DNA from: Escherichia coli
GTDB lineage: Bacteria > Pseudomonadota > Gammaproteobacteria > Enterobacterales > Enterobacteriaceae
Length of the DNA: 64,000 nt
Direction: 5' to 3' (one strand)
Assembly (NCBI RefSeq): GCF_013315695.1
Contig: NZ_CP054353.1
Shown here: positions 13,431 through 37,748 of the stretch, piece after piece
How the letters are laid out: every line of letters starts with the position of its first letter
Position numbering within the stretch: position 1 is the stretch's first letter
Program-made: the position numbers and the translations under genes
The notes under the pieces: generated by a model
Told to the model about the DNA's origin: nothing
Seen by the model: the letters and a program-made list of their open reading frames with translations, nothing else
Database searches by the model: none

Positions 13431-14201
13431 TTATTTTTTAAAGGTATCAGCCAGTTTCTGAGTGGCAGAGCGGAAGACGCCGAGATCGCTGCCGACAGCC
13501 ACAAACGTCGCACCCCATTCCAGATAACGACGCGCATCGGCTTCGACCGGTGCGAGGATACCGCTGGGTTTGCCGTGCGCACTGGCACGGTTAAAAATAT
13601 GCTGAATTGCTTTTTGTACATCCGGGTGCGAGGCATTGCCGAGATGGCCGAATGCCGCAGCCAGATCGCTGGGGCCGACGAAGATACCGTCTACGCCTTC
13701 GGTAGCGGCAATGGCATCGACGTTATCTACGCCCTGCTGACTTTCTATCTGGACCAGAATGGTGATGTTCTTGTTCGACTGAGCGAAATAATCCGCCACG
13801 GTGCCAAACATATTGGCGCGGTGAGAAACGGAGACGCCGCGAATGCCTTCCGGTGGGTAACGGGTTGATGCCACCGCCTGCTCTGCTTCCTCTTTTGTTT
13901 CTACAAAAGGAATCAAGAAGTTATAGAAACCGATATCCAGAAGACGCTTTATAATTACCGGCTCGTTGGTCGGCACTCGCACTACTGGCGCGCTGGCGCT
14001 GCCTTTCAGGGCCATTAACTGCGGAATAAACGTGGAGATATCGTTTGGCGCATGTTCGCCATCCAGCACCAGCCAGTCAAACCCAGCCAAACCAAGAACT
14101 TCAGTGCTAATCGGGTTAGAGAGTGCTGACCAGCAACCAATTTGTACCTGTTTCGCAGCCAGTGCGGCTTTGAATTTATTCGGGAAAACATCGTTATTCA
14201 T
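13431..14201 (-). CDS. garL: 5-keto-4-deoxy-D-glucarate aldolase GarL
   Basis: 256-aa [38 protein letters not shown]... Confidence 0.9.
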
Positions 14202-14216
14202 CGCTTATACCTTTGC

Positions 14217-15551
14217 TTATTTCTGCAATTCCATACGTTTAATGTCGCCAACTACGAAGAGGTAGCAGACCATCGCCATCAGCGCTGAACATCCCACGAA
14301 AACCAGTGCTGCATTGAAGGAGTGCAGTTCACTTACCAGGTAGCCAATCACCAGTGGAGTGACAATGGAGGCAACATTGCCAAAGACGTTAAAGACGCCG
14401 CCGCAGAGACCAACAATCTCTTTCGGCGCGGTGTCAGAAATCACTGGCCAGCCCAGCGCACCAAATCCTTTGCCAAAGAAAGCCAGCGCCATCAGCATGA
14501 CCACCAGCGTGGTGTTGTTGGTGTAGTTACATAAGATGATGGTGGAAGCCAGCAACATTCCCAGCACAATCGGTAGCTTACGTGCCAGGGTCAGGGATAA
14601 ACCGCGTTTGATCAGATAATCCGAGAAGACACCTCCCAGCACGCCGCCCGCAAAGCCACACAGTGCCGGAATCGAGGCGACCAGACCCACTTTCAGAATC
14701 GACATGCCTTTTTCCTGCACCAGATAAATTGGGAACCAGGTGAGGAAGAACCAGGTGATGGTGTTGATAAAATATTGTCCGAAAAATACGCCCAGCATCA
14801 TGCGGTTAGAGAGCAATTGCTTGATGTAATGCAGTTTGGGACCGCTTGCTGCCGCACTGCCCGGCTTTTTGTGGTCCATATCGACCACCGCGCCATTTTC
14901 TGAGATAAACTTCAGCTCTTCCGCAGACATACGTGGGTGATCTGTCGGGTTATGAATCAACTTGATCCACAGCGCCGTCAGCACAAAACCAATCACCCCC
15001 ATAACGGTGAAGACGTGCTCCCAGCCCCAGGCGAAAGTCAGCCAGCCAAGCAGCGGCGAAAAGAGCGCCAGCGAGAAATATTGCGCCGAGTTAAAGATGG
15101 CGGAGGCAGTACCACGTTCTTTTGTCGGAAACCAGGCGGCGACAATACGGGCGTTCGCCGGGAATGATGGCGCTTCCGAGAAGCCGAGCATAAAGCGCAT
15201 AAAGAACATGGAGATCCCTGCCCAGGCCAGCGGGAACATATCAACAAAGCCTTGCAGGAAGGTGAACAGCGACCAGAAAAAGAGGCTGTAGGTGTAAACT
15301 TTTTTCGAGCCAAACTTATCAAGCAGCCAGCCGCCGGGAATTTGCATCAGCAGGTAGGCCCAGCCAAAAGCGGAGAAGATGTAACCCATCGAAACCGCAC
15401 TTAACTGCAACTCTTTTGCCACTTCGGTACCAGCAATAGACAGCGTTGCACGATCGGCGTAGTTAACGGCGGTAACAATAAAAATAATCAGTAATATTAA
15501 ATAGCGGGTATGCACGCCTTTCTTTTTTACGTCAACGGTGTCCAGAATCAT
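14217..15551 (-). CDS. garP: galactarate/glucarate MFS transporter GarP
   Basis: 444-aa multi-pass membrane ORF MILDTVDVKKKGVHTRYLILLIIF... Confidence 0.9.
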   Translation of the reverse strand: MILDTVDVKKKGVHTRYLILLIIFIVTAVNYADRATLSIAGTEVAKELQLSAVSMGYIFSAFGWAYLLMQIPGGWLLDKFGSKKVYTYSLFFWSLFTFLQGFVDMFPLAWAGISMFFMRFMLGFSEAPSFPANARIVAAWFPTKERGTASAIFNSAQYFSLALFSPLLGWLTFAWGWEHVFTVMGVIGFVLTALWIKLIHNPTDHPRMSAEELKFISENGAVVDMDHKKPGSAAASGPKLHYIKQLLSNRMMLGVFFGQYFINTITWFFLTWFPIYLVQEKGMSILKVGLVASIPALCGFAGGVLGGVFSDYLIKRGLSLTLARKLPIVLGMLLASTIILCNYTNNTTLVVMLMALAFFGKGFGALGWPVISDTAPKEIVGLCGGVFNVFGNVASIVTPLVIGYLVSELHSFNAALVFVGCSALMAMVCYLFVVGDIKRMELQK

Positions 15552-15993
15552 TTTATTTACCTCGGGTACTTATGCTGATTTTTATTATTATGGGGAAGGT
15601 GTTATTTATGAGTTTTATTTATGCCGTTACGGCAATGAACTCGGGAATTAGTATAATCAGCGCGAGAATAATAATCATTGTGCAAATGCTAATTTAATTA
15701 ATACTATTTAAATATTATTTTGAGCATATGCACATAAGGTTGCGCGCTAAAGCACAGATTTGCGCTTTACCTTGCCGGGCGGCACTGCAATCCCTGAAAT
15801 GATTGACATTGATCACATTTCTGCGTTTAAACTCCTGACATTCTTATTTCACCCAATGAAGTAATTTATTTTTAAATGAGACCAGGTCCTCATTTTAATA
15901 ACCCCTGGCTGGAGAATATTGCACAATGGCCAACATCGAAATCAGACAAGAAACGCCAACTGCGTTTTATATAAAAGTTCACGACACAGATAA

Positions 15994-16002
15994 TGTGGCA
16001 AT
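15994..16002. repeat. left copy of 9-bp IS1 target-site duplication TGTGGCAAT
   Basis: Identical 9-mer directly flanks both IS1 ends (15994..16002 and 16771..16779). Confidence 0.9.
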
Positions 16003-16017
16003 GGTAATGACTCCAAC

Positions 16018-16521
16018 TTATTGATAGTGTTTTATGTTCAGATAATGCCCGATGACTTTGTCATGCAGCTCCACCGATTTTGAGAACGACAGCGACTTCC
16101 GTCCCAGCCGTGCCAGGTGCTGCCTCAGATTCAGGTTATGCCGCTCAATTCGCTGCGTATATCGCTTGCTGATTACGTGCAGCTTTCCCTTCAGGCGGGA
16201 TTCATACAGCGGCCAGCCATCCGTCATCCATATCACCACGTCAAAGGGTGACAGCAGGCTCATAAGACGCCCCAGCGTCGCCATAGTGCGTTCACCGAAT
16301 ACGTGCGCAACAACCGTCTTCCGGAGCCTGTCATACGCGTAAAACAGCCAGCGCTGGCGCGATTTAGCCCCGACATAGCCCCACTGTTCGTCCATTTCCG
16401 CGCAGACGATGACGTCACTGCCCGGCTGTATGCGCGAGGTTACCGACTGCGGCCTGAGTTTTTTAAGTGACGTAAAATCGTGTTGAGGCCAACGCCCATA
16501 ATGCGGGCTGTTGCCCGGCAT
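16018..16521 (-). CDS. insB: IS1 InsB (transposase C-terminal part; expressed as InsAB' by -1 frameshift)
   Basis: 167-aa [56 protein letters not shown]... Confidence 0.93.
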
Positions 16522-16715
16522 CCAACGCCATTCATGGCCATATCAATGATTTTCTGGTGCGTACCGGGTTGAGAAGCGGTGTAAGTGAACTGCAGTTGCC
16601 ATGTTTTACGGCAGTGAGAGCAGAGATAGCGCTGATGTCCGGCGGTGCTTTTGCCGTTACGCACCACCCCGTCAGTAGCTGAACAGGAGGGACAGCTGAT
16701 AGAAACAGAAGCCAC
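16440..16715 (-). CDS. insA: IS1 InsA (transposition repressor / transposase N-terminal part)
   Basis: 91-aa [45 protein letters not shown]... with zinc-finger-like Cys pairs. Confidence 0.93.
16458..16466 (-). promoter_or_regulatory. IS1 programmed -1 ribosomal frameshift site (A6C motif)
   Basis: Plus strand GTTTTTTAA is the reverse complement of TTAAAAAAC in the insA/insB overlap. Confidence 0.7.
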
Positions 16716-16770
16716 TGGAGCACCTCAAAAACACAATCATACACTAAATCAGTAAGTTGGCAGCATCACC

Positions 16771-16779
16771 TGTGGCAAT
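16771..16779. repeat. right copy of 9-bp IS1 target-site duplication TGTGGCAAT
   Basis: See left copy. Confidence 0.9.
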
Positions 16780-18422
16780 TATTGTTAATGATAATGGCCT
16801 GAAAGCAGGAACGCGTTTTCCGGATGAGCTGGAATTAATTGAACATATTCCCCAGGGGCATAAAGTCGCATTGCTGGACATTCCAGCTAATGGTGAAATT
16901 ATTCGTTATGGCGAAGTGATTGGTTACGCCGTGCGCGCAATCCCACGCGGAAGCTGGATCGACGAATCAATGGTTGTACTACCGGAAGCGCCGCCGTTAC
17001 ACACGCTGCCACTGGCAACCAAAGTCCCGGAACCCTTACCGCCGCTGGAAGGATACACCTTTGAGGGCTATCGCAATGCCGATGGCAGCGTGGGCACTAA
17101 AAACCTGCTCGGCATCACCACCAGCGTCCACTGTGTAGCAGGCGTGGTGGACTATGTAGTAAAAATCATTGAACGCGATCTGCTACCGAAATACCCGAAC
17201 GTCGATGGCGTGGTGGGGCTGAATCATTTGTACGGCTGTGGCGTGGCGATTAACGCACCGGCGGCAGTTGTGCCTATTCGTACCATCCACAATATTTCGC
17301 TGAACCCTAACTTTGGCGGCGAAGTAATGGTGATTGGTCTGGGTTGTGAAAAGTTGCAGCCTGAGCGCCTGCTGACTGGAACGGATGATGTGCAAGCTAT
17401 TCCAGTAGAAAGCGCCAGCATTGTCAGTTTGCAGGATGAAAAGCATGTCGGCTTTCAGTCCATGGTCGAGGATATTTTGCAGGTCGCCGAACGCCATTTG
17501 CACAAACTGAATCGACGGCAGCGAGAAACCTGTCCGGCTTCAGAACTGGTTGTTGGCATGCAGTGCGGTGGCAGCGATGCGTTTTCTGGCGTAACGGCAA
17601 ACCCGGCGGTTGGGTATGCGTCTGATCTACTGGTGCGCTGCGGCGCAACGGTGATGTTTTCAGAAGTCACGGAAGTGCGTGACGCGATCCATCTGCTGAC
17701 ACCACGCGCAGTGAACGAAGAGGTCGGCAAACGGCTGCTGGAGGAGATGGAGTGGTACGATAACTATCTCAATATGGGAAAAACCGACCGCAGCGCCAAC
17801 CCTTCGCCGGGCAACAAGAAAGGCGGTCTGGCAAATGTGGTGGAGAAAGCGCTCGGCTCCATTGCTAAATCGGGTAAAAGTGCAATTGTTGAAGTGCTGT
17901 CGCCCGGCCAACGCCCGACTAAACGCGGATTAATTTACGCCGCGACGCCAGCCAGCGATTTTGTCTGTGGCACGCAACAGGTGGCTTCGGGTATCACCGT
18001 GCAAGTGTTTACGACCGGTCGCGGTACGCCGTACGGCCTGATGGCGGTACCCGTCATTAAAATGGCAACCCGCACCGAGCTGGCGAACCGCTGGTTTGAT
18101 TTAATGGATATTAATGCGGGCACCATCGCTACCGGCGAAGAAACTATTGAAGAGGTGGGCTGGAAGTTGTTCCACTTTATTCTCGACGTCGCCAGCGGGA
18201 AGAAGAAAACCTTCTCAGATCAATGGGGACTGCATAACCAGCTGGCGGTGTTTAACCCAGCACCGGTGACCTGATTTCTTTTGGAACGTCCCTCGCAAAA
18301 CATGGCCTTAGTGCCATGTTTTTATTGTTTAAAGTCCCCACGTCCATTAATAATGCATTTGCATTACCTTAGTTCAAGCTTATAATTTGAGCAGAAAACA
18401 GGCTGTAAAAGGACAGTGAATC

Positions 18423-18758
18423 ATGCCCGCTAATGCTCGCTCTCACGCTGTACTGACCACTGAATCAAAGGTCACGATACGCGGACAAACAACTATCCCC
18501 GCGCCAGTGCGTGAGGCCTTAAAACTGAAGCCAGGCCTGGACAGCATTCATTACGAAATTCTGCCTGGTGGGCAAGTATTTATGTGCCGACTGGGAGATG
18601 AACAGGAGGATCATACTATGAATGCATTTTTGCGTTTTCTGGATGCAGATATCCAGAACAACCCGCAAATAACTCGTCCATTCAACATTCAACAAGGAAA
18701 GAAACTTGTCGCAGGCATGGACGTCAACATTGATGATGAGATTGGCGACGACGAATAA
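18423..18758 (+). CDS. prlF: type II antitoxin PrlF (SohA)
   Basis: 111-aa ORF MPANARSHAVLTTESKVTIRGQTTIPAPVREALKL... (AbrB/SpoVT-like swapped-hairpin N-terminus), immediately upstream of yhaV. Confidence 0.88.
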   Translation: MPANARSHAVLTTESKVTIRGQTTIPAPVREALKLKPGLDSIHYEILPGGQVFMCRLGDEQEDHTMNAFLRFLDADIQNNPQITRPFNIQQGKKLVAGMDVNIDDEIGDDE

Positions 18759-19222
18759 TGGATTTTCCACAAAGGGTTAATGGTTGGGCGCTATATGCTC
18801 ATCCCTGTTTTCAGGAAACCTACGACGCTTTAGTTGCCGAAGTTGAGACATTAAAGGGAAAAGATCCTGAAAATTATCAGAGAAAAGCCGCCACAAAGTT
18901 ATTGGCGGTAGTCCATAAAGTGATTGAGGAGCATATCACGGTCAATCCATCATCACCGGCATTCCGTCATGGCAAGTCGTTAGGCTCTGGGAAAAATAAA
19001 GACTGGTCACGGGTAAAATTTGGTGCTGGTCGTTATCGTCTCTTCTTTCGTTATAGTGAAAAAGAGAAAGTCATCATTCTGGGATGGATGAACGATGAAA
19101 ACACTCTGCGCACCTACGGTAAAAAAACAGATGCCTATACCGTATTCAGCAAAATGTTAAAAAGAGGACATCCTCCTGCCGACTGGGAAACCCTCACCCG
19201 AGAGACAGAAGAAACCCATTGA
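18758..19222 (+). CDS. yhaV: type II toxin YhaV (ribonuclease)
   Basis: 154-aa ORF MDFPQRVNGWALYAHPCFQETYDAL...; start overlaps prlF stop by 1 nt (ATGA). Confidence 0.88.
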   Translation: MDFPQRVNGWALYAHPCFQETYDALVAEVETLKGKDPENYQRKAATKLLAVVHKVIEEHITVNPSSPAFRHGKSLGSGKNKDWSRVKFGAGRYRLFFRYSEKEKVIILGWMNDENTLRTYGKKTDAYTVFSKMLKRGHPPADWETLTRETEETH

Positions 19223-19276
19223 TGGTGTTCACAATGCCCGCCGAACGCATTCGTGTTGACCAGCGGGCACCCTTTC

Positions 19277-20086
19277 TCACTCCCCGACCAGAATCACTTC
19301 AACCCCAGCCTTTCGCAGTCCTTCCAGACTATCCGCAGGAATGCCTTCATCAACAATGATCATGTCGATACGTTGAGTATCAATGATCTTATGTAAACTG
19401 GAACGGTTGAACTTACTGGAATCGGTGACCACGATGATCCGTTCCGCAACTTCGCACATCCGACGGTTTAAACGGGCTTCATCTTCATTATGCGTGCTGA
19501 CGCCGCGCTCCAGATCGATCGCATCTACGCCAAGAAACAGCATATCGAAGTGGTAATTTTGCAGCGATTGTTCAGCCTGATCGCCGTAAAAAGATTGCGA
19601 CTGACGGCGCAAATGCCCGCCGGTCATCAGCAGCTCAACGCCTTCCGCTTCCAGCAACGCATTAGCCACGTTCATACCGTTGGTCATCGCAATTACGTCA
19701 GTGTGCTTGCGCATCAGACGAGCAATCTCAAAAGTGGTGGTCCCGGAATCGAGGATTACCCGATGACCTGGCTGAATCAACTCAACGGCAGCTTTCGCAA
19801 CGCTGCGTTTCATTGCGGTGTTCAGCGCGCTTTTATCTTCCACTGATGGCTCGACTGACGGCGTCGTGCTATCGCAGATCAACGCGCCGCCATAGGCACG
19901 CACAGCGATCCCCTGCTTTTCCAGAAACGCCAGATCGTTGCGGATCGTCACAGTAGATACACCATACAACGCCGATAGATCATTAACTTGCACACTTCCT
20001 TGCTGGCGCAGGCGTTGAATAATCTGCTCTCGTCGCTCACTGGTGCCTGTCACTCGCTTCTCGCCTGAAGCGTCGGTATTACTCAT
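19277..20086 (-). CDS. agaR: DeoR-family repressor AgaR of the aga regulon
   Basis: 269-aa ORF with N-terminal HTH ([39 protein letters not shown]) and DeoR C-terminal domain. Confidence 0.9.
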
Positions 20087-20099
20087 AGTAAGTCCTTTC

Positions 20100-20305
20100 G
20101 TAAAACTTTCGTTTCATTTCGTTTTGCCTATTAACGCCTTTCTATTAAGCAAATGCAAGCCCACCTTACCCATTGGCGCAAGCTACTCTCGTTTCAGTGG
20201 CTTTCATTATGTTTCTTTTGTGAATCAGATCAGAAAACCATTATCTTTCGTTTTATTTTTATCTCACCATGGCGCAGTATCAACTGAAACAAAACGAAAG
20301 ATTAA
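20100..20305. promoter_or_regulatory. agaR/kbaZ divergent control region with repeated AgaR operator-like motifs
   Basis: CTTTCGTTTCATTTCGTTTTG (20106..20126), TTATCTTTCGTTTTATTTT (20241..20259) and inverted GAAACAAAACGAAAG (20286..20300). Confidence 0.6.
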
Positions 20306-20334
20306 TATCGCAGTAATCTGAACTGGAGAGGAAA

Positions 20335-21615
20335 GTGAAACATCTGACAGAAATGGTGAGACAGCACAAAGAGGGCAAAACAAATGGGATTTATGCCGTT
20401 TGTTCCGCACATCCGCTGGTGCTGGAAGCTGCAATCCGCTACGCCAGTGCAAACCAAACGCCGTTACTGATTGAAGCAACCTCCAATCAGGTGGACCAGT
20501 TCGGCGGTTATACCGGAATGACGCCCGCCGATTTTCGCGGCTTTGTTTGTCAGCTCGCCGACTCGTTGAATTTCCCACAGGATGCGTTGATTCTGGGTGG
20601 CGACCATCTGGGGCCAAACCGCTGGCAAAACCTGCCTGCCGCTCAGGCAATGGCCAATGCCGATGATTTGATTAAAAGCTACGTGGCGGCAGGATTCAAA
20701 AAAATTCACCTTGATTGCAGCATGTCCTGTCAGGACGATCCGATTCCCTTAACTGATGACATCGTGGCCGAACGCGCCGCTCGTCTGGCGAAAGTGGCGG
20801 AAGAAACCTGCCGTGAACATTTTGGCGCGGCCGATCTGGAGTATGTCATTGGTACCGAAGTACCGGTACCTGGCGGCGCGCATGAAACCTTAAGCGAGCT
20901 GGCGGTCACCACGCCGGATGCCGCCCGCGCCACGCTGGAAGCCCATCGTCACGCCTTTGAAAAGCAAGGTCTGAGTGCCATCTGGCCACGCATCATTGCT
21001 CTGGTGGTACAACCCGGCGTCGAATTCGATCACACCAACGTTATTGATTATCAGCCCGTCAAAGCGACCGCCTTAAGCCAGATGGTCGAAAACTACGAAA
21101 CGCTGATTTTCGAAGCGCACTCTACCGATTACCAAACGCCGCAATCGCTGCGCCAGCTGGTGATTGACCACTTTGCCATTCTGAAAGTTGGCCCGGCGCT
21201 GACCTTCGCCCTGCGTGAAGCTCTGTTCTCTCTGGCGGCGATTGAAGAAGAACTGGTACCAGCAAAAGCCTGTTCTGGTCTGCGTCAGGTGCTGGAAAAC
21301 GTGATGCTCGACCGCCCGGAATACTGGCAAAGCCACTACCACGGTGACGGCAACGCGCGTCGTCTGGCGCGTGGTTATAGCTACTCGGATCGCGTGCGCT
21401 ATTACTGGCCGGACAGCCAGATTGATGACGCTTTCGCTCATCTGGTTCGTAATCTGGCGGATTCACCAATTCCGCTACCGCTGATCAGCCAGTATTTGCC
21501 GCTGCAGTACGTGAAAGTTCGCTCCGGCGAGCTGCAGCCAACGCCACGGGAACTCATTATCAACCATATTCAGGACATCCTGGCGCAGTACCACACAGCC
21601 TGTGAAGGCCAATAA
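20335..21615 (+). CDS. kbaZ: tagatose-1,6-bisphosphate aldolase non-catalytic subunit KbaZ (AgaZ)
   Basis: 426-aa ORF from [39 protein letters not shown]... Confidence 0.9.
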
Positions 21616-21637
21616 GCAAAACAAAGAGGAACACGCT

Positions 21638-22111
21638 ATGCCAAATATTGTTTTAAGTCGGATTGATGAACGCTTGATTCACGGTCAGGTCGGCGTTCAG
21701 TGGGTCGGATTTGCGGGGGCAAATCTGGTGCTGGTAGCCAACGACGAGGTTGCCGAAGATCCGGTACAACAAAACCTGATGGAAATGGTACTGGCAGAAG
21801 GGATCGCCGTACGTTTCTGGACGCTGCAAAAAGTCATCGACAACATTCATCGCGCCGCCGATCGACAGAAAATCCTGCTGGTTTGTAAAACACCTGCCGA
21901 TTTCCTGACGCTGGTGAAAGGTGGCGTTCCGGTGAATCGCATTAACGTTGGCAATATGCACTACGCCAATGGCAAGCAACAAATCGCCAAAACGGTTTCT
22001 GTGGATGCGGGTGATATCGCAGCATTTAACGACCTGAAAGCCGCTGGGGTGGAATGCTTCGTTCAGGGCGTCCCGACAGAGCCTGCTGTGGACCTCTTTA
22101 AATTACTTTGA
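21638..22111 (+). CDS. agaV: N-acetylgalactosamine PTS EIIB component AgaV
   Basis: ORF 21602..22111; start taken at MPNIVLSRIDERLIHGQVGVQWVG (157 aa), mannose-family IIB. Confidence 0.9.
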   Translation: MPNIVLSRIDERLIHGQVGVQWVGFAGANLVLVANDEVAEDPVQQNLMEMVLAEGIAVRFWTLQKVIDNIHRAADRQKILLVCKTPADFLTLVKGGVPVNRINVGNMHYANGKQQIAKTVSVDAGDIAAFNDLKAAGVECFVQGVPTEPAVDLFKLL

Positions 22112-22121
22112 GGGATTCATC

Positions 22122-22901
22122 ATGGAAATCAGTCTGTTGCAGGCATTCGCGTTGGGCATTATCGCCTTTATCGCTGGCCTGGATATGTTTAACGGCCTAA
22201 CCCATATGCACCGCCCGGTGGTCCTCGGCCCGTTGGTCGGACTGGTACTTGGCGATCTGCATACCGGTATTTTAACCGGCGGTACGCTGGAACTGGTGTG
22301 GATGGGGCTGGCCCCGCTGGCGGGCGCACAGCCGCCTAACGTGATTATCGGTACTATCGTCGGCACGGCGTTTGCCATTACTACTGGCGTGAAACCCGAT
22401 GTCGCGGTCGGTGTCGCCGTACCTTTCGCTGTCGCAGTACAGATGGGGATTACCTTCCTGTTCTCGGTGATGTCCGGCGTGATGTCCCGCTGCGACCGGA
22501 TGGCGGAGAACGCCGATACACGCGGCATTGAACGCGTGAACTATCTGGCACTGCTGGCACTCGGCACGTTCTATTTTCTCTGCGCTTTCCTGCCTATCTA
22601 CTTCGGCGCAGAACATGCAAAAACCATCATTGATGTCCTGCCGCAACGATTAATCGACGGCCTCGGCGTCGCGGGCGGCATCATGCCAGCAATCGGTTTT
22701 GCCGTGTTGCTGAAAATCATGATGAAAAACGTCTACATCCCCTACTTCATCCTGGGCTTTGTTGCCGCAGCCTGGCTCAAGTTACCGGTGTTGGCTATTG
22801 CTGCCGCTGCGCTGGCGATGGCGCTGATCGACTTGCTGCGTAAATCTCCTGAACCGACTCAACCTGCGGCACAGAAAGAGGAATTTGAAGATGGCATCTA
22901 A
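22122..22901 (+). CDS. agaW: N-acetylgalactosamine PTS EIIC component AgaW, full length
   Basis: 259-aa membrane ORF MEISLLQAFALGIIAFIAGLDMFNG...; K-12 has only a truncated remnant. Confidence 0.88.
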   Translation: MEISLLQAFALGIIAFIAGLDMFNGLTHMHRPVVLGPLVGLVLGDLHTGILTGGTLELVWMGLAPLAGAQPPNVIIGTIVGTAFAITTGVKPDVAVGVAVPFAVAVQMGITFLFSVMSGVMSRCDRMAENADTRGIERVNYLALLALGTFYFLCAFLPIYFGAEHAKTIIDVLPQRLIDGLGVAGGIMPAIGFAVLLKIMMKNVYIPYFILGFVAAAWLKLPVLAIAAAALAMALIDLLRKSPEPTQPAAQKEEFEDGI

Positions 22902-23769
22902 TCAAACTACCCTGCCGAACGTCAGTGAAAACGAAGAAACACTGCTGACTGGCGTCAATGAAAACGTGTATGAAGATCAGAGTATTGGCGCGGAGCTGAC
23001 GAAAAAAGATATCAACCGCGTCGCCTGGCGTTCCATGCTGTTACAAGCGTCTTTTAACTACGAACGTATGCAGGCTTCCGGCTGGTTGTACGGTCTGCTG
23101 CCTGCTCTGAAAAAGATCCACACTAATAAACGCGACCTGGCGCGCGCCATGAAGGGGCATATGGGTTTCTTCAATACCCATCCGTTTCTGGTGACGTTTG
23201 TTATCGGCATTATCCTTGCGATGGAGCGTTCTAAGCAGGACGTTAACAGTATTCAGAGCACCAAAATTGCCGTCGGTGCGCCGCTCGGCGGGATTGGCGA
23301 TGCGATGTTCTGGCTAACGCTACTGCCGATTTGTGGCGGGATAGGCGCAAGCCTCGCGCTACAAAGCTCTATTCTTGGCGCAGTCGTCTTTATTGTGCTG
23401 TTCAACGTGGCGCATCTCGGTTTGCGTTTTGGTCTTGCACATTATGCTTACCGCATGGGCGTGGCGGCGATTCCACTCATTAAAGCAAATACCAAAAAAG
23501 TCGGCCATGCGGCATCTATCGTTGGGATGACGGTAATCGGCGCGCTGGTGGCAACCTATGTTCGTTTAAGCACCACGCTGGAAATCACAGCGGGCGACGC
23601 AGTGGTTAAGTTACAGGCTGATGTTATCGACAAACTGATGCCTGCCTTCTTACCACTGGTCTACACCCTGACCATGTTCTGGCTGGTACGCCGCGGCTGG
23701 AGTCCGCTGCGCCTGATTGCGATTACCGTGGTTCTCGGCATCGTCGGTAAATTCTGCCATTTCCTTTAA
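22885..23769 (+). CDS. agaE: N-acetylgalactosamine PTS EIID component AgaE
   Basis: 294-aa membrane ORF, mannose-family IID; overlaps agaW stop; absent from K-12. Confidence 0.85.
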   Translation: MKMASNQTTLPNVSENEETLLTGVNENVYEDQSIGAELTKKDINRVAWRSMLLQASFNYERMQASGWLYGLLPALKKIHTNKRDLARAMKGHMGFFNTHPFLVTFVIGIILAMERSKQDVNSIQSTKIAVGAPLGGIGDAMFWLTLLPICGGIGASLALQSSILGAVVFIVLFNVAHLGLRFGLAHYAYRMGVAAIPLIKANTKKVGHAASIVGMTVIGALVATYVRLSTTLEITAGDAVVKLQADVIDKLMPAFLPLVYTLTMFWLVRRGWSPLRLIAITVVLGIVGKFCHFL

Positions 23770-23786
23770 ATACAATGAGGTATTAG

Positions 23787-24221
23787 ATGTTAAGTATTAT
23801 TTTGACAGGGCATGGCGGATTTGCCAGCGGCATGGAAAAAGCAATGAAGCAAATTCTCGGTGAGCAATCGCAGTTTATCGCCATCGATTTTCCGGAAACC
23901 TCAAGCACCGCGCTGCTTACATCGCAGCTTGAAGAGGCCATCGTCCAACTGGATTGTGAAGACGGCATTGTTTTTCTGACGGATTTGCTGGGCGGCACGC
24001 CGTTTCGCGTAGCTTCAACGCTGGCGATGCAAAAACCGGGCTGTGAAGTGATCACCGGCACCAATTTGCAACTGCTACTGGAGATGGTGCTGGAGCGCGA
24101 AGGGTTAAGCGGTGAAGAGTTCCGTGTGCAGGCGCTGGAGTGTGGACACCGTGGGCTGACCAGTCTGGTGGACGAGTTAGGCCGCTGCCATGAAGAATGT
24201 CCGGTCGAGGAAGGAATATGA
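23787..24221 (+). CDS. agaF: PTS EIIA component AgaF
   Basis: 144-aa ORF MLSIILTGHGGFASGMEKAMKQILGEQ..., mannose-family IIA with His in TGHGGFA context. Confidence 0.85.
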   Translation: MLSIILTGHGGFASGMEKAMKQILGEQSQFIAIDFPETSSTALLTSQLEEAIVQLDCEDGIVFLTDLLGGTPFRVASTLAMQKPGCEVITGTNLQLLLEMVLEREGLSGEEFRVQALECGHRGLTSLVDELGRCHEECPVEEGI

Positions 24222-25351
24222 CACACGTTCTGCGCGCCAGAAGGCTGCTGACTGAAGAGGGATGGCTCGATGACCATCAGTTGCGTATTGCTGACGGTGT
24301 AATCGCAGCAATCGAACCGATTCCAGTGGGCGTGACTGAACGCGATGCGGAACTGCTCTGCCCCGCTTACATCGACACCCATGTACACGGTGGTGCGGGC
24401 GTTGATGTAATGGATGACGCGCCGGATGCGCTCGACAAGCTGGCAATGCACAAGGCACGCGAAGGTGTCGGCAGTTGGTTACCGACCACCGTAACCGCGC
24501 CGCTTAATACCATTCATGCGGCGCTGAAACGTATTGCTCTACGCTGCCAGCGTGGCGGACCTGGTGCGCAAGTGCTGGGGAGTTATCTCGAAGGACCGTA
24601 CTTCACGCCGCAGAATAAAGGCGCGCATCCGCCGGAGCTGTTTCGCGAGCTGGAAATTGCCGAGCTGGATCAATTGATTGCCGTTTCTCAGCACACCTTG
24701 CGCGTGGTAGCGCTGGCACCAGAAAAAGAAGGGGCATTGCAGGCCATCCGCCATCTTAAACAGCAAAACGTACGGGTGATGCTGGGGCATAGCGCGGCGA
24801 CCTGGCAACAAACCCGTGCCGCGTTTGACGCTGGTGCCGACGGCCTGGTGCATTGCTATAACGGGATGACAGGTTTACATCACCGCGAACCGGGAATGGT
24901 TGGCGCGGGATTAACGGACAAGCGCGCCTGGCTGGAACTGATAGCCGATGGTCATCATGTACATCCGGCGGCGATGTCGCTGTGTTGTTGCTGTGCGAAA
25001 GAGAGAATCGTGCTGATCACCGACGCGATGCAGGCAGCCGGGATGCCGGATGGTCGCTATACGTTATGTGGTGAAGAAGTGCAGATGCACGATGGCGTTG
25101 TCCGTACCGCGTCCGGTGGGCTGGCGGGCAGTACGCTGTCTGTCGATGCGGCAGTGCGCAACATGGTCGAGTTGACGGGCGTAACGCCTGCGGAAGCCAT
25201 CCATATGGCATCGCTGCATCCGGCGCGTATGCTGGGTGTTGATGGTGTTCTGGGATCGCTTAAACCGGGCAAACGCGCCAGCGTCGTTGCGCTGGATAGC
25301 GGGCTGCATGTGCAACAAATCTGGATTCAGGGTCAATTAGCTTCGTTTTGA
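24218..25351 (+). CDS. agaA: N-acetylgalactosamine-6-phosphate deacetylase AgaA, full length
   Basis: ORF 24197..25351; start taken at MTHVLRARRLLTEEGW; NagA-like amidohydrolase with HxH motif (DTHVHGGAG). Confidence 0.88.
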   Translation: MTHVLRARRLLTEEGWLDDHQLRIADGVIAAIEPIPVGVTERDAELLCPAYIDTHVHGGAGVDVMDDAPDALDKLAMHKAREGVGSWLPTTVTAPLNTIHAALKRIALRCQRGGPGAQVLGSYLEGPYFTPQNKGAHPPELFRELEIAELDQLIAVSQHTLRVVALAPEKEGALQAIRHLKQQNVRVMLGHSAATWQQTRAAFDAGADGLVHCYNGMTGLHHREPGMVGAGLTDKRAWLELIADGHHVHPAAMSLCCCCAKERIVLITDAMQAAGMPDGRYTLCGEEVQMHDGVVRTASGGLAGSTLSVDAAVRNMVELTGVTPAEAIHMASLHPARMLGVDGVLGSLKPGKRASVVALDSGLHVQQIWIQGQLASF

Positions 25352-25369
25352 TGGTTTGCTCCTTTATTG

Positions 25370-25402
25370 GGCCTTCACTTCCCCCGTAAGGCCTTTTTTT
25401 TT
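25370..25402 (+). terminator. possible rho-independent terminator after agaA
   Basis: GGCCTT ... AAGGCC inverted repeat followed by T9 run. Confidence 0.45.
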
Positions 25403-25577
25403 CTTTCTTTTTGATCTGTGCAGCGGTGTCGGATGCGACGCTGACGCGTCTTCTTCGACCTACGGTACGCCGCATCCGGCAATCGGTGAACATAGCGACG
25501 TTATCACGCAATCCTTTAATCTTCCCTTGTCTTTTCTTTCAATGATCACAAATTTCGTTTTATTTCTTTTTTCTCCA

Positions 25578-25660
25578 TTGAACTTTCAGTTTCTTTTCTA
25601 TAGATTTTAATCAACGAAAGACATCACCAAGTGAAATGAAACGAAAGGTAAGCGAAAGCG
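25578..25660. promoter_or_regulatory. agaS promoter region with AgaR operator-like motifs
   Basis: AACTTTCAGTTTCTTTTC and GAAATGAAACGAAAGG resemble the motifs upstream of kbaZ/agaR. Confidence 0.5.
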
Positions 25661-25701
25661 ACAACGCCCGACGCCAAGTTCATCAGACTAAGGATTGAGT
25701 T

Positions 25702-26856
25702 ATGCCAGAAAATTACACCCCTGCTGCCGCTGCAACCGGTACATGGACTGAAGAAGAGATCCGCCATCAGCCTCGCGCATGGATCCGTTCACTCACCAAC
25801 ATCGACGCGCTACGTTCCGCGCTCAATAACTTCCTTGAACCGTTACTGCGCAAAGAGAATCTGCGGGTAATCCTGACCGGAGCCGGAACCTCGGCATTTA
25901 TCGGTGATATCATCGCGCCGTGGCTCGCCAGCCATACCGGTAAAAACTTCAGCGCCGTACCGACCACCGATCTGGTCACTAATCCGATGGACTACCTGAA
26001 TCCAGCTCATCCGCTACTGTTGATCTCCTTCGGTCGATCCGGCAACAGCCCGGAAAGCGTCGCCGCCGTGGAACTGGCGAATCAGTTTGTACCGGAATGC
26101 TATCACCTGCCGATCACCTGCAACGAAGCGGGCGCTCTTTACCAAAACGCGATCAACAGCGACAACGCGTTTGCCCTGCTGATGCCCGCAGAAACGCACG
26201 ATCGCGGCTTTGCGATGACCAGCAGCATTACCACCATGATGGCCAGCTGCCTCGCGGTTTTCGCACCTGAGACGATCAACAGCCAAACCTTCCGCGATGT
26301 GGCAGATCGTTGCCAGGAAATCCTGACCTCACTGGGCGATTTCAGTGAAGGTGTGTTTGGTTACGCACCGTGGAAACGGATCGTTTATCTCGGCAGCGGT
26401 GGCTTACAGGGCGCAGCACGCGAGTCGGCGCTGAAAGTACTGGAACTGACAGCGGGTAAACTGGCGGCCTTTTATGATTCCCCGACCGGATTCCGTCATG
26501 GACCAAAATCGCTGGTCGATAACGAAACGCTGGTGGTGGTATTTGTCTCCAGCCACCCTTACACCCGTCAGTATGATCTTGATCTGCTGGCAGAACTCCG
26601 CCGCGATAACCAGGCATTGCGCGTAATCGCCATCGCCGCAGAAAGCAACGACGTTATTACCGCCGGTCCACATATCATCCTGCCGCCGTCCCGTCACTTT
26701 ATCGACGTTGAGCAGGCATTTTGCTTCCTGATGTACGCCCAGACGTTTGCACTGATGCAGTCGCTGCACATGGGCAATACGCCGGATACCCCATCAGCCA
26801 GTGGCACCGTTAACCGCGTGGTGCAAGGCGTAATCATTCATCCGTGGCAGGCATAA
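25702..26856 (+). CDS. agaS: SIS-domain galactosamine-6-phosphate deaminase/isomerase AgaS
   Basis: 384-aa ORF MPENYTPAAAATGTWTEEEIRHQPRAW... Confidence 0.9.
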   Translation: MPENYTPAAAATGTWTEEEIRHQPRAWIRSLTNIDALRSALNNFLEPLLRKENLRVILTGAGTSAFIGDIIAPWLASHTGKNFSAVPTTDLVTNPMDYLNPAHPLLLISFGRSGNSPESVAAVELANQFVPECYHLPITCNEAGALYQNAINSDNAFALLMPAETHDRGFAMTSSITTMMASCLAVFAPETINSQTFRDVADRCQEILTSLGDFSEGVFGYAPWKRIVYLGSGGLQGAARESALKVLELTAGKLAAFYDSPTGFRHGPKSLVDNETLVVVFVSSHPYTRQYDLDLLAELRRDNQALRVIAIAAESNDVITAGPHIILPPSRHFIDVEQAFCFLMYAQTFALMQSLHMGNTPDTPSASGTVNRVVQGVIIHPWQA

Positions 26857-27729
<873 letters not shown>

Positions 27730-27880
27730 TCATTAGTTTTTTATGATTTATCCCAATGTACTTCCCGATTAATATCGGGGAGTGCCTTAATGGAAAAGGA
27801 GATAACTAAACCTTAATAAATACATCAGTAAAATATCGCAACAATAATATATTTTAAAAAATTATGGTAATGACTCCAAC

Positions 27881-28384
27881 TTATTGATAGTGTTTTATGT
27901 TCAGATAATGCCCGATGACTTTGTCATGCAGCTCCACCGATTTTGAGAACGACAGCGACTTCCGTCCCAGCCGTGCCAGGTGCTGCCTCAGATTCAGGTT
28001 ATGCCGCTCAATTCGCTGCGTATATCGCTTGCTGATTACGTGCAGCTTTCCCTTCAGGCGGGATTCATACAGCGGCCAGCCATCCGTCATCCATATCACC
28101 ACGTCAAAGGGTGACAGCAGGCTCATAAGACGCCCCAGCGTCGCCATAGTGCGTTCACCGAATACGTGCGCAACAACCGTCTTCCGGAGCCTGTCATACG
28201 CGTAAAACAGCCAGCGCTGGCGCGATTTAGCCCCGACATAGCCCCACTGTTCGTCCATTTCCGCGCAGACGATGACGTCACTGCCCGGCTGTATGCGCGA
28301 GGTTACCGACTGCGGCCTGAGTTTTTTAAGTGACGTAAAATCGTGTTGAGGCCAACGCCCATAATGCGGGCTGTTGCCCGGCAT
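27881..28384 (-). CDS. insB: IS1 InsB
   Basis: 167-aa ORF identical to copy 1 InsB. Confidence 0.93.
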
Positions 28385-28578
28385 CCAACGCCATTCATGG
28401 CCATATCAATGATTTTCTGGTGCGTACCGGGTTGAGAAGCGGTGTAAGTGAACTGCAGTTGCCATGTTTTACGGCAGTGAGAGCAGAGATAGCGCTGATG
28501 TCCGGCGGTGCTTTTGCCGTTACGCACCACCCCGTCAGTAACTGAACAGGAGGGACAGCTGATAGAAACAGAAGCCAC
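28303..28578 (-). CDS. insA: IS1 InsA
   Basis: 91-aa ORF; differs from copy 1 at one residue (CSVTDG vs CSATDG). Confidence 0.93.
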
Positions 28579-28633
28579 TGGAGCACCTCAAAAACACCAT
28601 CATACACTAAATCAGTAAGTTGGCAGCATCACC

Positions 28634-28844
28634 ACAAACGGTACGTAAATTGGTAGAAGGTGGTATTGACCTGAAAGATGTCAACGTCGGCAATATGCAT
28701 TTCTCGGAAGGGAAAAAGCAAATCAGCAGTAAAGTTTATGTCGATGACCAGGATCTCGCGGACTTACGTTTTATTAAACAACGTGGCGTGAATGTTTTCA
28801 TTCAGGACGTCCCTGGCGATCAAAAAGAACAAATCCCTGACTAA
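28634..28844 (+). pseudogene. agaB: agaB (galactosamine PTS EIIB), 5-prime truncated; only about the C-terminal 69 codons remain
   Basis: Frame ...QTVRKLVEGGIDLKDVNVGNMHFSEGKKQISSKVYVDDQDLADLRFIKQRGVNVFIQDVPGDQKEQIPD matches the AgaB C-terminus and begins directly at the IS1 end. Confidence 0.85.
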
Positions 28845-28882
28845 ATCTAAAATCGCCTTAATATTGGTTTGAGGTAATAAAA

Positions 28883-29686
28883 ATGCATGAAATAACCCTA
28901 CTTCAGGGATTATCCCTGGCGGCGTTAGTTTTCGTTCTGGGGATTGATTTTTGGCTGGAAGCCTTATTTTTATTCCGCCCGATAATCGTTTGTACCCTAA
29001 CTGGCGCTATTCTCGGTGATATTCAGACTGGCTTAATTACCGGTGGTCTGACAGAGTTGGCTTTCGCCGGATTAACCCCTGCAGGTGGTGTTCAACCGCC
29101 CAACCCGATTATGGCGGGTCTGATGACCACCGTCATTGCATGGTCTACGGGCGTTGATGCCAAAACGGCAATTGGTCTTGGCCTGCCGTTTAGTTTGTTA
29201 ATGCAGTACGTCATTCTGTTCTTCTATTCCGCTTTCTCATTATTTATGACCAAAGCCGATAAATGCGCAAAAGAGGCGGATACGGCAGCATTTTCCCGAC
29301 TTAACTGGACAACGATGCTCATCGTCGCTTCAGCGTATGCGGTGATTGCTTTCCTCTGTACTTACCTGGCACAAGGGGCGATGCAGGCGCTGGTGAAAGC
29401 GATGCCCGCCTGGCTGACCCACGGCTTTGAAGTGGCTGGCGGTATTCTGCCTGCCGTTGGTTTTGGCTTGCTGCTGCGCGTGATGTTCAAAGCGCAATAT
29501 ATCCCTTACCTGATCGCCGGTTTCCTGTTCGTTTGCTACATCCAGGTCAGCAACCTGTTGCCGGTTGCCGTGCTGGGCGCAGGCTTTGCGGTGTATGAGT
29601 TTTTCAATGCGAAATCCCGGCAGCAAGCGCAACCGCAGCCCGTTGTCAGTAAAAATGAAGAAGAGGACTACAGCAATGGGATCTGA
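28883..29686 (+). CDS. agaC: galactosamine PTS EIIC component AgaC
   Basis: 267-aa membrane ORF MHEITLLQGLSLAALVFVLGIDFW... Confidence 0.9.
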   Translation: MHEITLLQGLSLAALVFVLGIDFWLEALFLFRPIIVCTLTGAILGDIQTGLITGGLTELAFAGLTPAGGVQPPNPIMAGLMTTVIAWSTGVDAKTAIGLGLPFSLLMQYVILFFYSAFSLFMTKADKCAKEADTAAFSRLNWTTMLIVASAYAVIAFLCTYLAQGAMQALVKAMPAWLTHGFEVAGGILPAVGFGLLLRVMFKAQYIPYLIAGFLFVCYIQVSNLLPVAVLGAGFAVYEFFNAKSRQQAQPQPVVSKNEEEDYSNGI

Positions 29687-30467
29687 AATCAGTAAAAAAG
29701 ATATCACCCGTCTGGGCTTTCGTTCGTCACTGCTACAAGCAAGCTTTAACTACGAAAGGATGCAGGCGGGCGGTTTTACCTGGGCGATGTTGCCGATCCT
29801 GAAAAAGATTTATAAGGACGACAAACCGGGCCTAAGCGCGGCGATGAAAGATAACCTCGAATTTATTAATACCCACCCTAATCTGGTCGGATTTCTGATG
29901 GGGTTATTAATTTCGATGGAAGAAAAAGGAGAAAACCGCGACACCATTAAAGGCCTCAAAGTGGCACTGTTTGGCCCAATCGCCGGGATTGGCGATGCGA
30001 TTTTCTGGTTTACCTTATTGCCGATTATGGCGGGAATTTGCTCATCATTTGCCAGCCAGGGAAACCTGTTGGGGCCGATTTTGTTTTTCGCCGTTTACCT
30101 GCTTATCTTCTTCCTGCGCGTCGGCTGGACCCACGTCGGTTATTCAGTCGGCGTGAAGGCGATCGATAAAGTGCGAAAGAACTCGCAGATGATTGCTCGT
30201 TCGGCAACCATCCTCGGGATCACGGTAATCGGCGGGCTGATCGCTTCGTATGTGCATATTAACGTGGTGACATCGTTTGCCATCGACAGTACCCACAGCG
30301 TCGCACTGCAGCAGGATTTCTTCGATAAAGTCTTCCCGAACATTTTACCGATGGCCTACACCCTGCTGATGTATTACTTCCTGCGGGTGAAAAAAGCGCA
30401 TCCGGTGCTGTTAATCGGCGTGACTTTTGTGCTCTCTATTGTTTGTTCCGCATTCGGCATTTTGTAA
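29676..30467 (+). CDS. agaD: galactosamine PTS EIID component AgaD
   Basis: ORF 29565..30467; start taken at MGSEISKKDITRLGFRSSLLQASFNYERMQ (263 aa). Confidence 0.9.
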   Translation: MGSEISKKDITRLGFRSSLLQASFNYERMQAGGFTWAMLPILKKIYKDDKPGLSAAMKDNLEFINTHPNLVGFLMGLLISMEEKGENRDTIKGLKVALFGPIAGIGDAIFWFTLLPIMAGICSSFASQGNLLGPILFFAVYLLIFFLRVGWTHVGYSVGVKAIDKVRKNSQMIARSATILGITVIGGLIASYVHINVVTSFAIDSTHSVALQQDFFDKVFPNILPMAYTLLMYYFLRVKKAHPVLLIGVTFVLSIVCSAFGIL

Positions 30468-31235
30468 ATGGAACGAGGCACTGCGTCTGGCGGTGCCTCT
30501 TTACTTAAGGAATTTCATCCTGTGCAAACCCTTCAACAAGTTGAAAACTATACGGCGTTAAGTGAACGTGCCAGCGAATATTTATTGGCCGTGATCCGTA
30601 GCAAACCGGATGCCGTGATTTGCCTGGCGACCGGAGCCACGCCATTACTGACGTATCATTATTTGGTAGAAAAAATCCACCAGCAGCAGGTTGATGTCAG
30701 CCAGCTTACCTTCGTGAAGCTCGACGAATGGGTGGATCTGCCATTAACGATGCCTGGTACCTGCGAAACTTTCCTACAACAGCATATCGTGCAGCCGCTG
30801 GGGCTGCGTGAAGACCAGCTCATCAGCTTTCGCTCTGAAGAGATAAATGAGACAGAGTGCGAACGGGTAACGAACCTGATTGCGCGCAAAGGCGGTCTGG
30901 ATTTATGCGTTCTCGGATTGGGGAAAAACGGTCATCTTGGGCTGAACGAACCGGGAGAAAACCTGCAACCGGCCTGCCATATCAGTCAACTTGATGCCAG
31001 AACACAGCAACATGAGATGTTAAAAACCGCGGGCCGTCCTGTGACTCGTGGGATCACCTTAGGCCTGAAGGATATTCTCAATGCCCGCGAAGTTTTGTTA
31101 CTGGTGACTGGCGAAGGAAAGCAGGATGCGACAGAACGTTTTCTCACGGCTAAAGTCTCTACCGCTATCCCGGCTTCGTTTTTATGGCTGCATAACTATT
31201 TCACATGCATGATTGATGAGATGTGTCGTCGTTAA
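30468..31235 (+). CDS. agaI: putative galactosamine-6-phosphate deaminase/isomerase AgaI (NagB-like)
   Basis: 255-aa ORF MERGTASGGASLLKEFHPVQTLQQVENY... Confidence 0.88.
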   Translation: MERGTASGGASLLKEFHPVQTLQQVENYTALSERASEYLLAVIRSKPDAVICLATGATPLLTYHYLVEKIHQQQVDVSQLTFVKLDEWVDLPLTMPGTCETFLQQHIVQPLGLREDQLISFRSEEINETECERVTNLIARKGGLDLCVLGLGKNGHLGLNEPGENLQPACHISQLDARTQQHEMLKTAGRPVTRGITLGLKDILNAREVLLLVTGEGKQDATERFLTAKVSTAIPASFLWLHNYFTCMIDEMCRR

Positions 31236-31284
31236 CTCGCCTGCTACAGGCGTTGTAGCGCTATTCCTGCTGCAACGCCTGTAA

Positions 31285-32148
31285 TCACTCCCCCTGCTGC
31301 TCCAGCGCATACTTATACAGCGCGTTTTTTTTCACGCCGTGAATCTCTGCCGCCAGCGCCGCCGCTTTCTTCAGCGGAAGCTCAGCCTGTAACAACGCCA
31401 GCGTGCGCAGGGCATCGGCGGGTAAGTCTTCTTCCTGTGCTTTATGGCCTCCGACAATCAGTACCATTTCGCCTTTGCGACGGTTTTCATCTTCTTTGAC
31501 CCACGCCAGCAGCTCGCCAACGGGCGCGCCGTGAATGGTTTCCCAGGTTTTGGTCAGCTCACGCGCCAGAACGACGTAGCGGGATTCGCCTAATACCGCA
31601 ACGATATCTTCCAGGCTATCTAACAGACGGTGGGTAGATTCATAAAAAATCAGCGTGCGCGGCTCCGCTTCAATGGCTTTTAGCGCATCACGGCGGCCTT
31701 TTGATTTGGCAGGTAAAAAGCCTTCATAACAAAAACGATCGGATGGTAAACCCGCGGCGCTTAACGCAGTGATAGCAGCACACGGCCCGGGTAGCGGCAC
31801 CACGCGAATCCCCGCTTCACGGCAGGTACGCACCAGATGGTAGCCAGGATCGTTAATTAGCGGCGTTCCGGCATCGGAAACCAGCGCAATGTTTTGCCCC
31901 TCTTGCAGCTTCGCCAGCAGCGTTTCGGCTTTTTGTTGTTCGTTATGGTCGTGCAGCGCAAACAACCGAGCATTAATCCCAAAATGTTGCAGCAATAAAC
32001 CGGTGTGACGCGTATCCTCGGCGGCAATCAGATCAACGGCCTGTAATACCTCCAACGCACGCTGGGTGATATCCGCCAGATTGCCGATTGGCGTCGGTAC
32101 AATGTAAAGCTGGCCCTGAGAATTATCCGCCGATTGGTGTTGTTTCAT
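31285..32148 (-). CDS. rsmI: 16S rRNA C1402 2'-O-methyltransferase RsmI (YraL)
   Basis: 287-aa [38 protein letters not shown]... Confidence 0.92.
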
Positions 32149-32212
32149 TGTGTCGTCCGTATTGCCGATTTAATATTGAGCATTGCGTAAAAAAAATATC
32201 ACTGGATACATT

Positions 32213-34249: not shown

Positions 34250-34602
34250 CCACCAAACAGACCGGCGATGCGTGGGAAGCACAAGCGCGTCGCTGGCTGG
34301 AAGGCAAAGGACTGCGGTTTATCGCCGCTAACGTGAACGAGCGTGGCGGCGAGATCGATCTGATAATGCGTGAAGGCCGGACCACCGTTTTTGTCGAGGT
34401 GCGTTACCGCCGCTCTGCGCTTTATGGCGGCGCGGCAGCCAGTGTGACCCGCAGCAAACAACACAAATTATTACAGACTGCCCGCTTGTGGCTCGCGCGT
34501 CATAATGGGAGTTTTGATACTGTGGATTGCCGGTTCGATGTGGTAGCCTTCACCGGGAATGAGGTTGAGTGGATTAAGGATGCCTTTAATGACCACTCAT
34601 AA
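34207..34602 (+). CDS. yraN: UPF0102 family protein YraN
   Basis: 131-aa ORF overlapping lpoA 3-prime end. Confidence 0.85.
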
Positions 34603-34621
34603 TTAAGGTTTAAGGATTAGC

Positions 34622-35212: not shown

Positions 35213-35221
35213 GGAGAATAC

Positions 35222-35797: not shown

Positions 35798-35905
35798 CAG
35801 CCCTTGTAATGCCTGATGCGACGCTTGCAGCGTCTTATCAGGCCTACAACGATGCAAACCGTAGGTCGGATAAGGCGTTTACGCCGCATCCGACATGTTT
35901 TCCCT
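35798..35905. repeat. REP/BIME palindromic unit cluster
   Basis: GCCTGATGCGACGCTTGCAGCGTCTTATCAGGCCTAC and GTAGGTCGGATAAGGCGTTTACGCCGCATCCGACA motifs. Confidence 0.75.
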
Positions 35906-35909
35906 CAAA

Positions 35910-36950: not shown

Positions 36951-37022
36951 AGCATTCCCCAGGAATAAGTTATGATAATTGAGCGCGTGAATATTACGCT
37001 CACTATCAATTCTTGGGAATAA

Positions 37023-37668
<646 letters not shown>

Positions 37669-37695
37669 TTACAGAATTGTCTGCCTTGCGCTCCC

Positions 37696-37747
<52 letters not shown>

Positions 37748-37748
37748 A

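Follow-up and report, generated by a model that had tools for sequence, protein, structure and literature searches.

An IS1 insertion with a 9-bp target-site duplication interrupts garD in an Escherichia coli lineage predicted to be galactarate-negative

The galactarate-specific dehydratase GarD, whose gene has its own CdaR-controlled promoter, converts galactarate to 5-keto-4-deoxy-glucarate, GudD does likewise from glucarate, and GarL, GarR and GarK act next on the common product (PMC11775122; bioRxiv 10.1101/2024.02.14.580360). In Salmonella, GarD defects abolish growth on galactarate (PMC11775122; bioRxiv 10.1101/2024.02.14.580360), and the ability to use galactarate reportedly helps enterobacteria to colonise the inflamed gut (PMC11775122). 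Natural loss of the enzyme has been documented in host-restricted serovars: garD is a pseudogene in S. Paratyphi A, while S. Typhi has a defective GarD, with a galactarate growth defect shown experimentally (bioRxiv 10.1101/2024.02.14.580360). In E. coli, independent garD::IS1 alleles are already present in RefSeq (Table 1).

Here we describe a further garD::IS1 allele, of which we found no report in the literature. It lies within a stretch of 64,000 nucleotides of E. coli DNA (contig NZ_CP054353.1), referred to below as the window. The allele is a textbook case of a known gene knocked out by IS1, and both of its components are known, annotated elements; its value is practical, as a lineage marker and for predicting a biotype, and it raises no new question on IS1 or GarD. 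We consider it highly probable that this locus results from a simple IS1 insertion with a 9-bp duplication, giving a garD null allele and a strain predicted to be galactarate-negative. The element, its duplication, the empty site, the collinearity of the flanks and the inheritance of the allele can all be read directly from the sequences compared.

Table 1. Coordinates of the features of the interrupted garD region, and positions of IS1 in or beside garD in other complete E. coli genomes
Feature	Position	Strand	Remarks
garD 5' fragment	15926..16002	+	codons 1-25 plus two bases of codon 26; 100% identical to MSB1_4I garD
Target-site duplication, left copy	15994..16002		TGTGGCAAT
IS1, complete, 768 bp	16003..16770	-	opposite to garD transcription; from end patterns, ORFs and profile matches
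IRR of the IS1 in garD	16003..16025		
insB' frame	16018..16521	-	open; encodes the catalytic portion of InsAB', the transposase produced through a frameshift
insA	16440..16715	-	91 codons, GTG start; NF033558 and NF050000 matches
A6C -1 frameshift motif	16458..16464	-	AAAAAAC; element position 307
IRL of the IS1 in garD	16748..16770		
Promoter-like hybrid site	16757..16785	+	TTGGCA (in IRL), 17 nt, TATTGT (in garD); consensus match only, 9/12
Target-site duplication, right copy	16771..16779		TGTGGCAAT
garD 3' fragment	16780..18274	+	third base of codon 26 to the stop; most of SAF, plus GD_AH_second and GD_AH_C
Second IS1	27866..28633	-	same orientation as the garD copy; between kbaY and a 5'-truncated agaB
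IS1 in 74-2	garD nt 107		deletion into aga/yra, no duplication
IS1 in EA7 and LR-64-1	garD nt 178		IS1 deletions without duplication; left junction shared, right ends differ
IS1 in HUM3355	garD nt 216		simple IS1 insertion, duplication GGCGAAGTG
IS1 in MIN9	garD nt 262		deletion into aga/yra, no duplication
IS1 in Ecol_AZ147 and EC5931	garP-garD spacer		insertions with duplications; garD intact

A preliminary description of this DNA, made from its letters, had placed a complete 768-bp IS1 at 16003..16770, and both direct reading and a script check returned exactly these coordinates. The two ends, GGTAATGACTCCAACTTATTGAT at 16003..16025 and the reverse complement of GGTGATGCTGCCAACTTACTGAT at 16748..16770, match the IS1-end pattern with 0 mismatches, and form terminal inverted repeats of about 23 bp that are imperfect (18/23 positions match). 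A degenerate version of the IS1-end pattern was found at 4 sites in the 64-kb window, compared with 0 in 100 shuffles. Within the element, the NCBIfam profile NF033558 (IS1 family transposase) aligns its positions 1-81 to InsA residues 8-89 and its positions 75-199 to InsB residues 18-142, the latter with a score of 145.6 bits (cut-off 100). Near-identical IS1 copies carry the RefSeq annotation 'programmed frameshift', and the copy in garD shares 99.74% identity with an IS1A-annotated copy of E. coli MSB1_4I. The element is an intact, ordinary IS1 whose coding capacity is whole.

The flanks of the element bear the perfect 9-bp direct repeat that had been claimed for them, with TGTGGCAAT recovered on either side both by reading and by script. 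The repeat is exactly 9 bp long because the adjoining bases differ (A versus C before it, G versus T after it). On the + strand of the 64-kb window this 9-mer occurs at these two places only, and the chance identity of two fixed 9-mers is 4^-9, or ~4e-6. As the garD ATG is at 15926, 77 nt of the gene precede IS1; the earlier placement of the element after garD codon 25 was therefore nearly right, in that 25 codons are indeed kept, together with 2 further bases, so that the break falls after the second base of codon 26. The target is in the most AT-rich stretch of garD, where a 60-nt window has 31.7% GC (0.9th percentile within the gene) against a garD mean of 53%. The preference of IS1 for AT-rich DNA regions is well established, and the target fits this regional preference.

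Deletion in silico of IS1 and one copy of the 9-mer rebuilds an open reading frame of 1,572 nt (523 codons), whose product bears out the assignment of the interrupted gene to garD. The rebuilt protein scores 936.8 bits on TIGR03248 (galactarate dehydratase, UxaA/GarD family) against a cut-off of 730.85, is identical to WP_001571955.1, the annotated GarD of MSB1_4I, and is matched over residues 1-523 by PDB entry 6u7l (E = 0); its Pfam domains are SAF (22-92), GD_AH_second (122-270) and GD_AH_C (279-520). The gene also has the conserved neighbourhood of garD, with garPLRK divergent from it and prlF-yhaV-agaR downstream, the window being collinear with the annotated MSB1_4I region. In this genome there is no uninterrupted garD frame, since IS1 breaks it after 77 nt, at a point inside both conserved models (TIGR03248 aligns from residue 15, and SAF spans the residues given above). 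The 5' stub continues into IS1 as far as a TGA at 16022..16024, which would yield a 32-aa peptide with 7 codons inside the element, and the frame of the 3' fragment is open back to a GTG at 16772 (500 aa) and a TTG at 16757 (505 aa).

A check put forward in the preliminary description was for an empty site with a single copy of the 9-mer, and this was found in MSB1_4I, a commensal E. coli to which the window is essentially identical. In MSB1_4I the flanks of ~16 kb and ~47 kb align to a single uninterrupted segment, where they overlap by exactly 9 bases, at one TGTGGCAAT. Across the 64-kb window there are 0 mismatches to MSB1_4I in 1..16002 and 6 substitutions in 16771..64000, the rebuilt window 12900..19300 is identical to MSB1_4I at 100.000% over 5,624 bp without gaps, and the only structural difference is the garD IS1 with its 9-bp duplication. 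Since both flanks are collinear with MSB1_4I, no rearrangement followed the insertion, and the earlier reading of a simple transposition holds. More broadly, a 338-bp empty-site probe was covered to at least 80% in 5,380 of 5,426 complete E. coli genomes and was 100% identical in two of them, MSB1_4I and NZ_OZ547117.1. Related genomes hence mostly have the empty site, rather than naturally containing the 768-bp segment, and the 9-mers flanking the element are identical, as had been anticipated. Neither occupied junction was present as a single piece among the 5,426 complete genomes; the 'full-cover' junction matches that did appear there were all two-piece matches to IS1 at other positions.

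We suggest that, in an ancestor of this strain, garD would have received IS1 by transposition at its AT-rich 5' end, with staggered cuts 9 bp apart at TGTGGCAAT being filled in to leave the flanking direct repeat, and that the locus would have undergone no rearrangement since. The gene would have been split in this way into a 25-codon stub and a promoterless 3' fragment, amounting to a null allele. Such a cell would keep the transporter GarP as well as GarL, GarR and GarK, while galactarate dehydration would be lost. Judged from the sequence, GarD activity is almost certainly gone and the strain should be galactarate (mucate)-negative. Growth on glucarate through GudD should not be affected; this part of the prediction follows from the general organisation of the pathway, the gud genes and cdaR being located beyond the window. 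It is the organisation of the pathway, together with garP, garL, garR and garK sequences in the window that are identical to those of the intact reference MSB1_4I, that leads us to predict a galactarate-negative, glucarate-positive strain, and a mucate/galactarate-negative biotype for the lineage. Shigella is likewise IS1-rich and mucate-negative, but a Shigella origin of this DNA was rejected, the window being essentially identical to the commensal E. coli MSB1_4I.

The allele is not confined to this strain. The 500-aa product starting at GTG 16772 exists only because of this junction, and an exact-protein look-up found it on record on 11 contigs of ENA and Logan assemblies (public short-read and metagenome data). 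Three of the 11 contigs were examined; these contigs begin inside the IRL end of IS1, and their junction is identical. An ENA contig of 11,313 bp corresponds to 16662..27974 of the window, running from the garD IS1 to another IS1 on the aga side (considered below), and carries, at three positions where the window differs from MSB1_4I, the base of MSB1_4I. Look-ups by exact sequence returned no record of the 505-aa product starting at TTG or of the chimeric stub of 32 aa. The occurrence of the same right junction on 11 public contigs makes the allele a lineage marker rather than a single-strain event, and it need not have arisen here; it is inherited in a lineage that has slightly diverged since. 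The junction offers a clean marker of that lineage, which PCR, or a k-mer spanning GATAATGTGGCAATGGTAATGAC, can score.

Why such an allele should be kept is a separate matter. Across unrelated genomes, at least eight distinct IS1 junction positions are found in garD, the one described here included; besides those in Table 1, three more garD positions, at about nt 120, 144 and 161, are taken from match spans only. The tabulated IS1 copies of the other complete genomes have the same orientation as the garD copy of the window. It could be proposed that the AT-rich initial ~260 nt of garD are a recurrent landing zone for IS1, and that insertions there are kept as loss is advantageous in some gut-adapted, IS1-rich lineages. 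These eight or more junction positions, and the presence of our allele in at least 11 assemblies, support a reading of selected loss, but the data may fit target preference as well as selection, and we regard selected loss as improbable. If true, the allele would represent the earliest stage of a convergent pathway-loss trajectory and not a neutral accident, and the advantage would lie either in losing galactarate catabolism or in losing the garD-prlF-yhaV-aga segment that is later deleted.

Whatever the cause of its retention, a simple insertion need not abolish function if the 3' fragment is active. The allele would be leaky if a truncated GarD, translated from the in-frame GTG 16772 or TTG 16757, supported growth on galactarate, its transcript coming either from read-through of the garD promoter or from a hybrid promoter formed by the IS1 end. 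The open frame of 500 or 505 codons does keep GD_AH_second and GD_AH_C intact, the 500-aa product is called by gene callers in public assemblies, and a promoter-like TTGGCA-17-TATTGT site spans the IS1/garD junction. However, the number of promoter-like sites in the region (4) is not above that expected from shuffles (2.6 +/- 1.7), and a transcript from the hybrid site would begin downstream of 16785, past both start codons, so that the next in-frame starts (TTG 16871 and GTG 16916) would cost at least 56 residues. Read-through from the garD promoter would need to cross ~750 nt of untranslated antisense IS1, and IS1 insertions are polar in both orientations. Nor is there a Shine-Dalgarno-like sequence ahead of 16757 or 16772. 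The product itself would be without residues 15-23, which are within the region aligned to TIGR03248 (from residue 15) and beside the start of SAF (22-92), the importance of GarD residues 1-25 being judged here from profile boundaries. It is unlikely, on these grounds, that an active downstream fragment would be expressed, and growth on galactarate by way of a leaky allele has in our view a slim chance.

The window holds a second IS1, unmentioned in the preliminary description, in the aga cluster (Table 1). This aga-side IS1 is without a target duplication, and two base differences from the garD IS1 (at 16678 and 16735) ruled it out as an identical donor copy. Its exact junction is common only to MSB1_4I and NZ_OZ547117.1, from both of which the garD copy is absent; being shared with MSB1_4I, the aga-side IS1 must be older than the copy in garD. 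Together, the two directly oriented elements bracket 11,095 bp comprising garD', prlF-yhaV and agaR through kbaY.

Such a same-orientation pair around 11,095 bp could be taken for a Tn9-like composite, carrying garD', prlF-yhaV and most of the aga cluster, which is either mobile or an intermediate preceding deletion. In other E. coli genomes, garD'-IS1 does run directly into aga or yra DNA, the genes between them having been deleted and no duplication being present, and EA7 and LR-64-1 share their left junction at garD nt 178 while their right ends differ, which is the pattern of successive IS1-adjacent deletions. Yet the segment in the window is at its native chromosomal position, collinear with MSB1_4I, and nothing points to movement of the unit. 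The two IS1 copies arrived separately, since only the aga copy is found in MSB1_4I and NZ_OZ547117.1, and the outer flanks of the pair differ, with TGTGGCAAT at 15994..16002 against ACAAACGGT after 28633. We therefore consider a composite transposon very improbable; in any case, it concerns a possible future of the locus and is compatible with simple insertion, in that recombination between the IS1 copies could remove the 11-kb segment, a fate that similar segments have met in other strains. Finally, that the garD IS1 is an assembly artefact, a misplaced copy of a repeat, is scarcely conceivable: IS1 is multi-copy in the lineage (at least 40 matching pieces in MSB1_4I) and repeats are a classic source of misassembly, but a misplaced copy would not yield a perfect 9-bp target duplication, separate assemblies of different runs, in ENA and in Logan, recovered the same junction, and the element differs from the neighbouring IS1 at 2 positions and so is not a collapsed duplicate.

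A simple IS1 insertion that inactivates garD is thus the reading that we retain, and it places the locus close to several known systems. The element itself shows no structural differences from the IS1A/IS1B-type copies of E. coli (IS1 family), with which it shares its 768 bp, 23-bp imperfect inverted repeats, insA/A6C/insB' organisation, 9-bp duplication and AT-rich target. As in Tn9, a direct IS1 pair brackets a DNA segment, but the 11.1 kb bracketed here are native chromosomal DNA at their original location, and no duplication accompanies the aga-side IS1. A close parallel is HUM3355 (NZ_CP093317.1), where an identically oriented IS1 likewise interrupts the 5' part of garD by simple insertion, is flanked by a 9-bp duplication of its own (GGCGAAGTG) and leaves both halves of the gene in place, which RefSeq annotates as two garD pseudogene fragments; this is nevertheless an independent event, at nt 216 and not nt 77, in an unrelated strain background. 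In 74-2, MIN9, EA7 and LR-64-1, a same-orientation IS1 also abuts a short garD 5' stub (at nt 107, 262, 178 and 178, respectively), but without a duplication, and the garD 3' part, prlF-yhaV and part or all of aga are deleted, whereas the window keeps all of these. Host-restricted Salmonella provide a further case in which the galactarate dehydratase step has been lost in an enteric bacterium. There, the loss came about through point mutations or gene decay and is accompanied by gudT and gudD defects, whereas here it would be due to IS1, with garP, garL, garR and garK left identical to the intact reference.

The two directly oriented IS1 copies of the window, 11,095 bp apart, bracket the distal part of garD together with much of the aga cluster (see table). 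This arrangement is Tn9-like, and the pair is a ready substrate for recombinational deletion between the two elements. Both ends of the bracketed segment recur in L014, an independent ENA metagenome contig of 11,313 bp that carries the same garD::IS1 junction.

The second IS1, which differs from the garD copy at two positions, has no target-site duplication in its flanks and directly adjoins a 5'-truncated agaB; together, the missing duplication and the truncation suggest an IS1-adjacent deletion. Its exact junction was found only in MSB1_4I, a near-identical genome with an empty garD site, and in the close relative NZ_OZ547117.1, in a search of 5,426 complete genomes. In 291 of these genomes an IS1 sits no more than about 700 bp from the 3' end of kbaY, annotated chiefly in or near agaC, making the aga cluster a frequent IS1 site species-wide. 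At least 40 IS1 matches were present in each of MSB1_4I and NZ_OZ547117.1, the median per genome being 10 places. The lineage therefore appears to be IS1-rich, which would raise the likelihood of new insertions like that in garD.

Features of the window discussed in the text
Feature	Position	Remarks
Second IS1	27866..28633	orientation as garD copy
Flanks of second IS1	27846..27865 and 28634..28653	
Bracketed segment with both IS1 copies	16003..28633	garD', prlF-yhaV, agaR, kbaZ, agaVWEF, nagA/agaA, agaS, kbaY
Substitutions against MSB1_4I (n=6)	23411, 26346, 26640, 31451, 35980, 42015	first three in agaE and agaS
T/G difference in garD IS1	16735	top-strand position 36 of the element, in the stretch separating IRL from insA
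agaI-rsmI (yraL) junction	~30468..32148	

The three agaE and agaS substitutions are missing from the ENA contig carrying the same garD::IS1 allele, so that they are either private to the window strain or the trace of a small recombination patch. Within the garD element itself, top-strand position 36 is T. The base there is G in the aga copy as well as in the ENA contig, a difference that reflects either a mutation after insertion or an effect of repeat collapse in the short-read contig.

The 5' end of garD has been interrupted by IS1 elsewhere. Repeated junctions fall within its first ~260 nt in unrelated strains (L002, L003, L004, L007 and L010), with verified positions at nt 107, 178, 216 and 262 and further ones inferred at about nt 120, 144 and 161. 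The majority of these junctions are fused to aga or yra DNA, the genes between having been deleted. EA7 and LR-64-1 have the left garD junction in common and unlike right ends, a pattern that looks like successive IS1-adjacent deletions. IS1 has also entered the garP-garD intergenic region, which holds the divergent promoters: in Ecol_AZ147 and EC5931, insertions each with a 9-bp duplication sit 271 and 153 nt, respectively, upstream of an intact garD, and may have changed the regulation of one or both operons.

Beyond the aga cluster, agaI directly adjoins rsmI (yraL) in the window lineage, whereas the L004 and L010 strains have the yraH-yraK fimbrial genes past the cluster.
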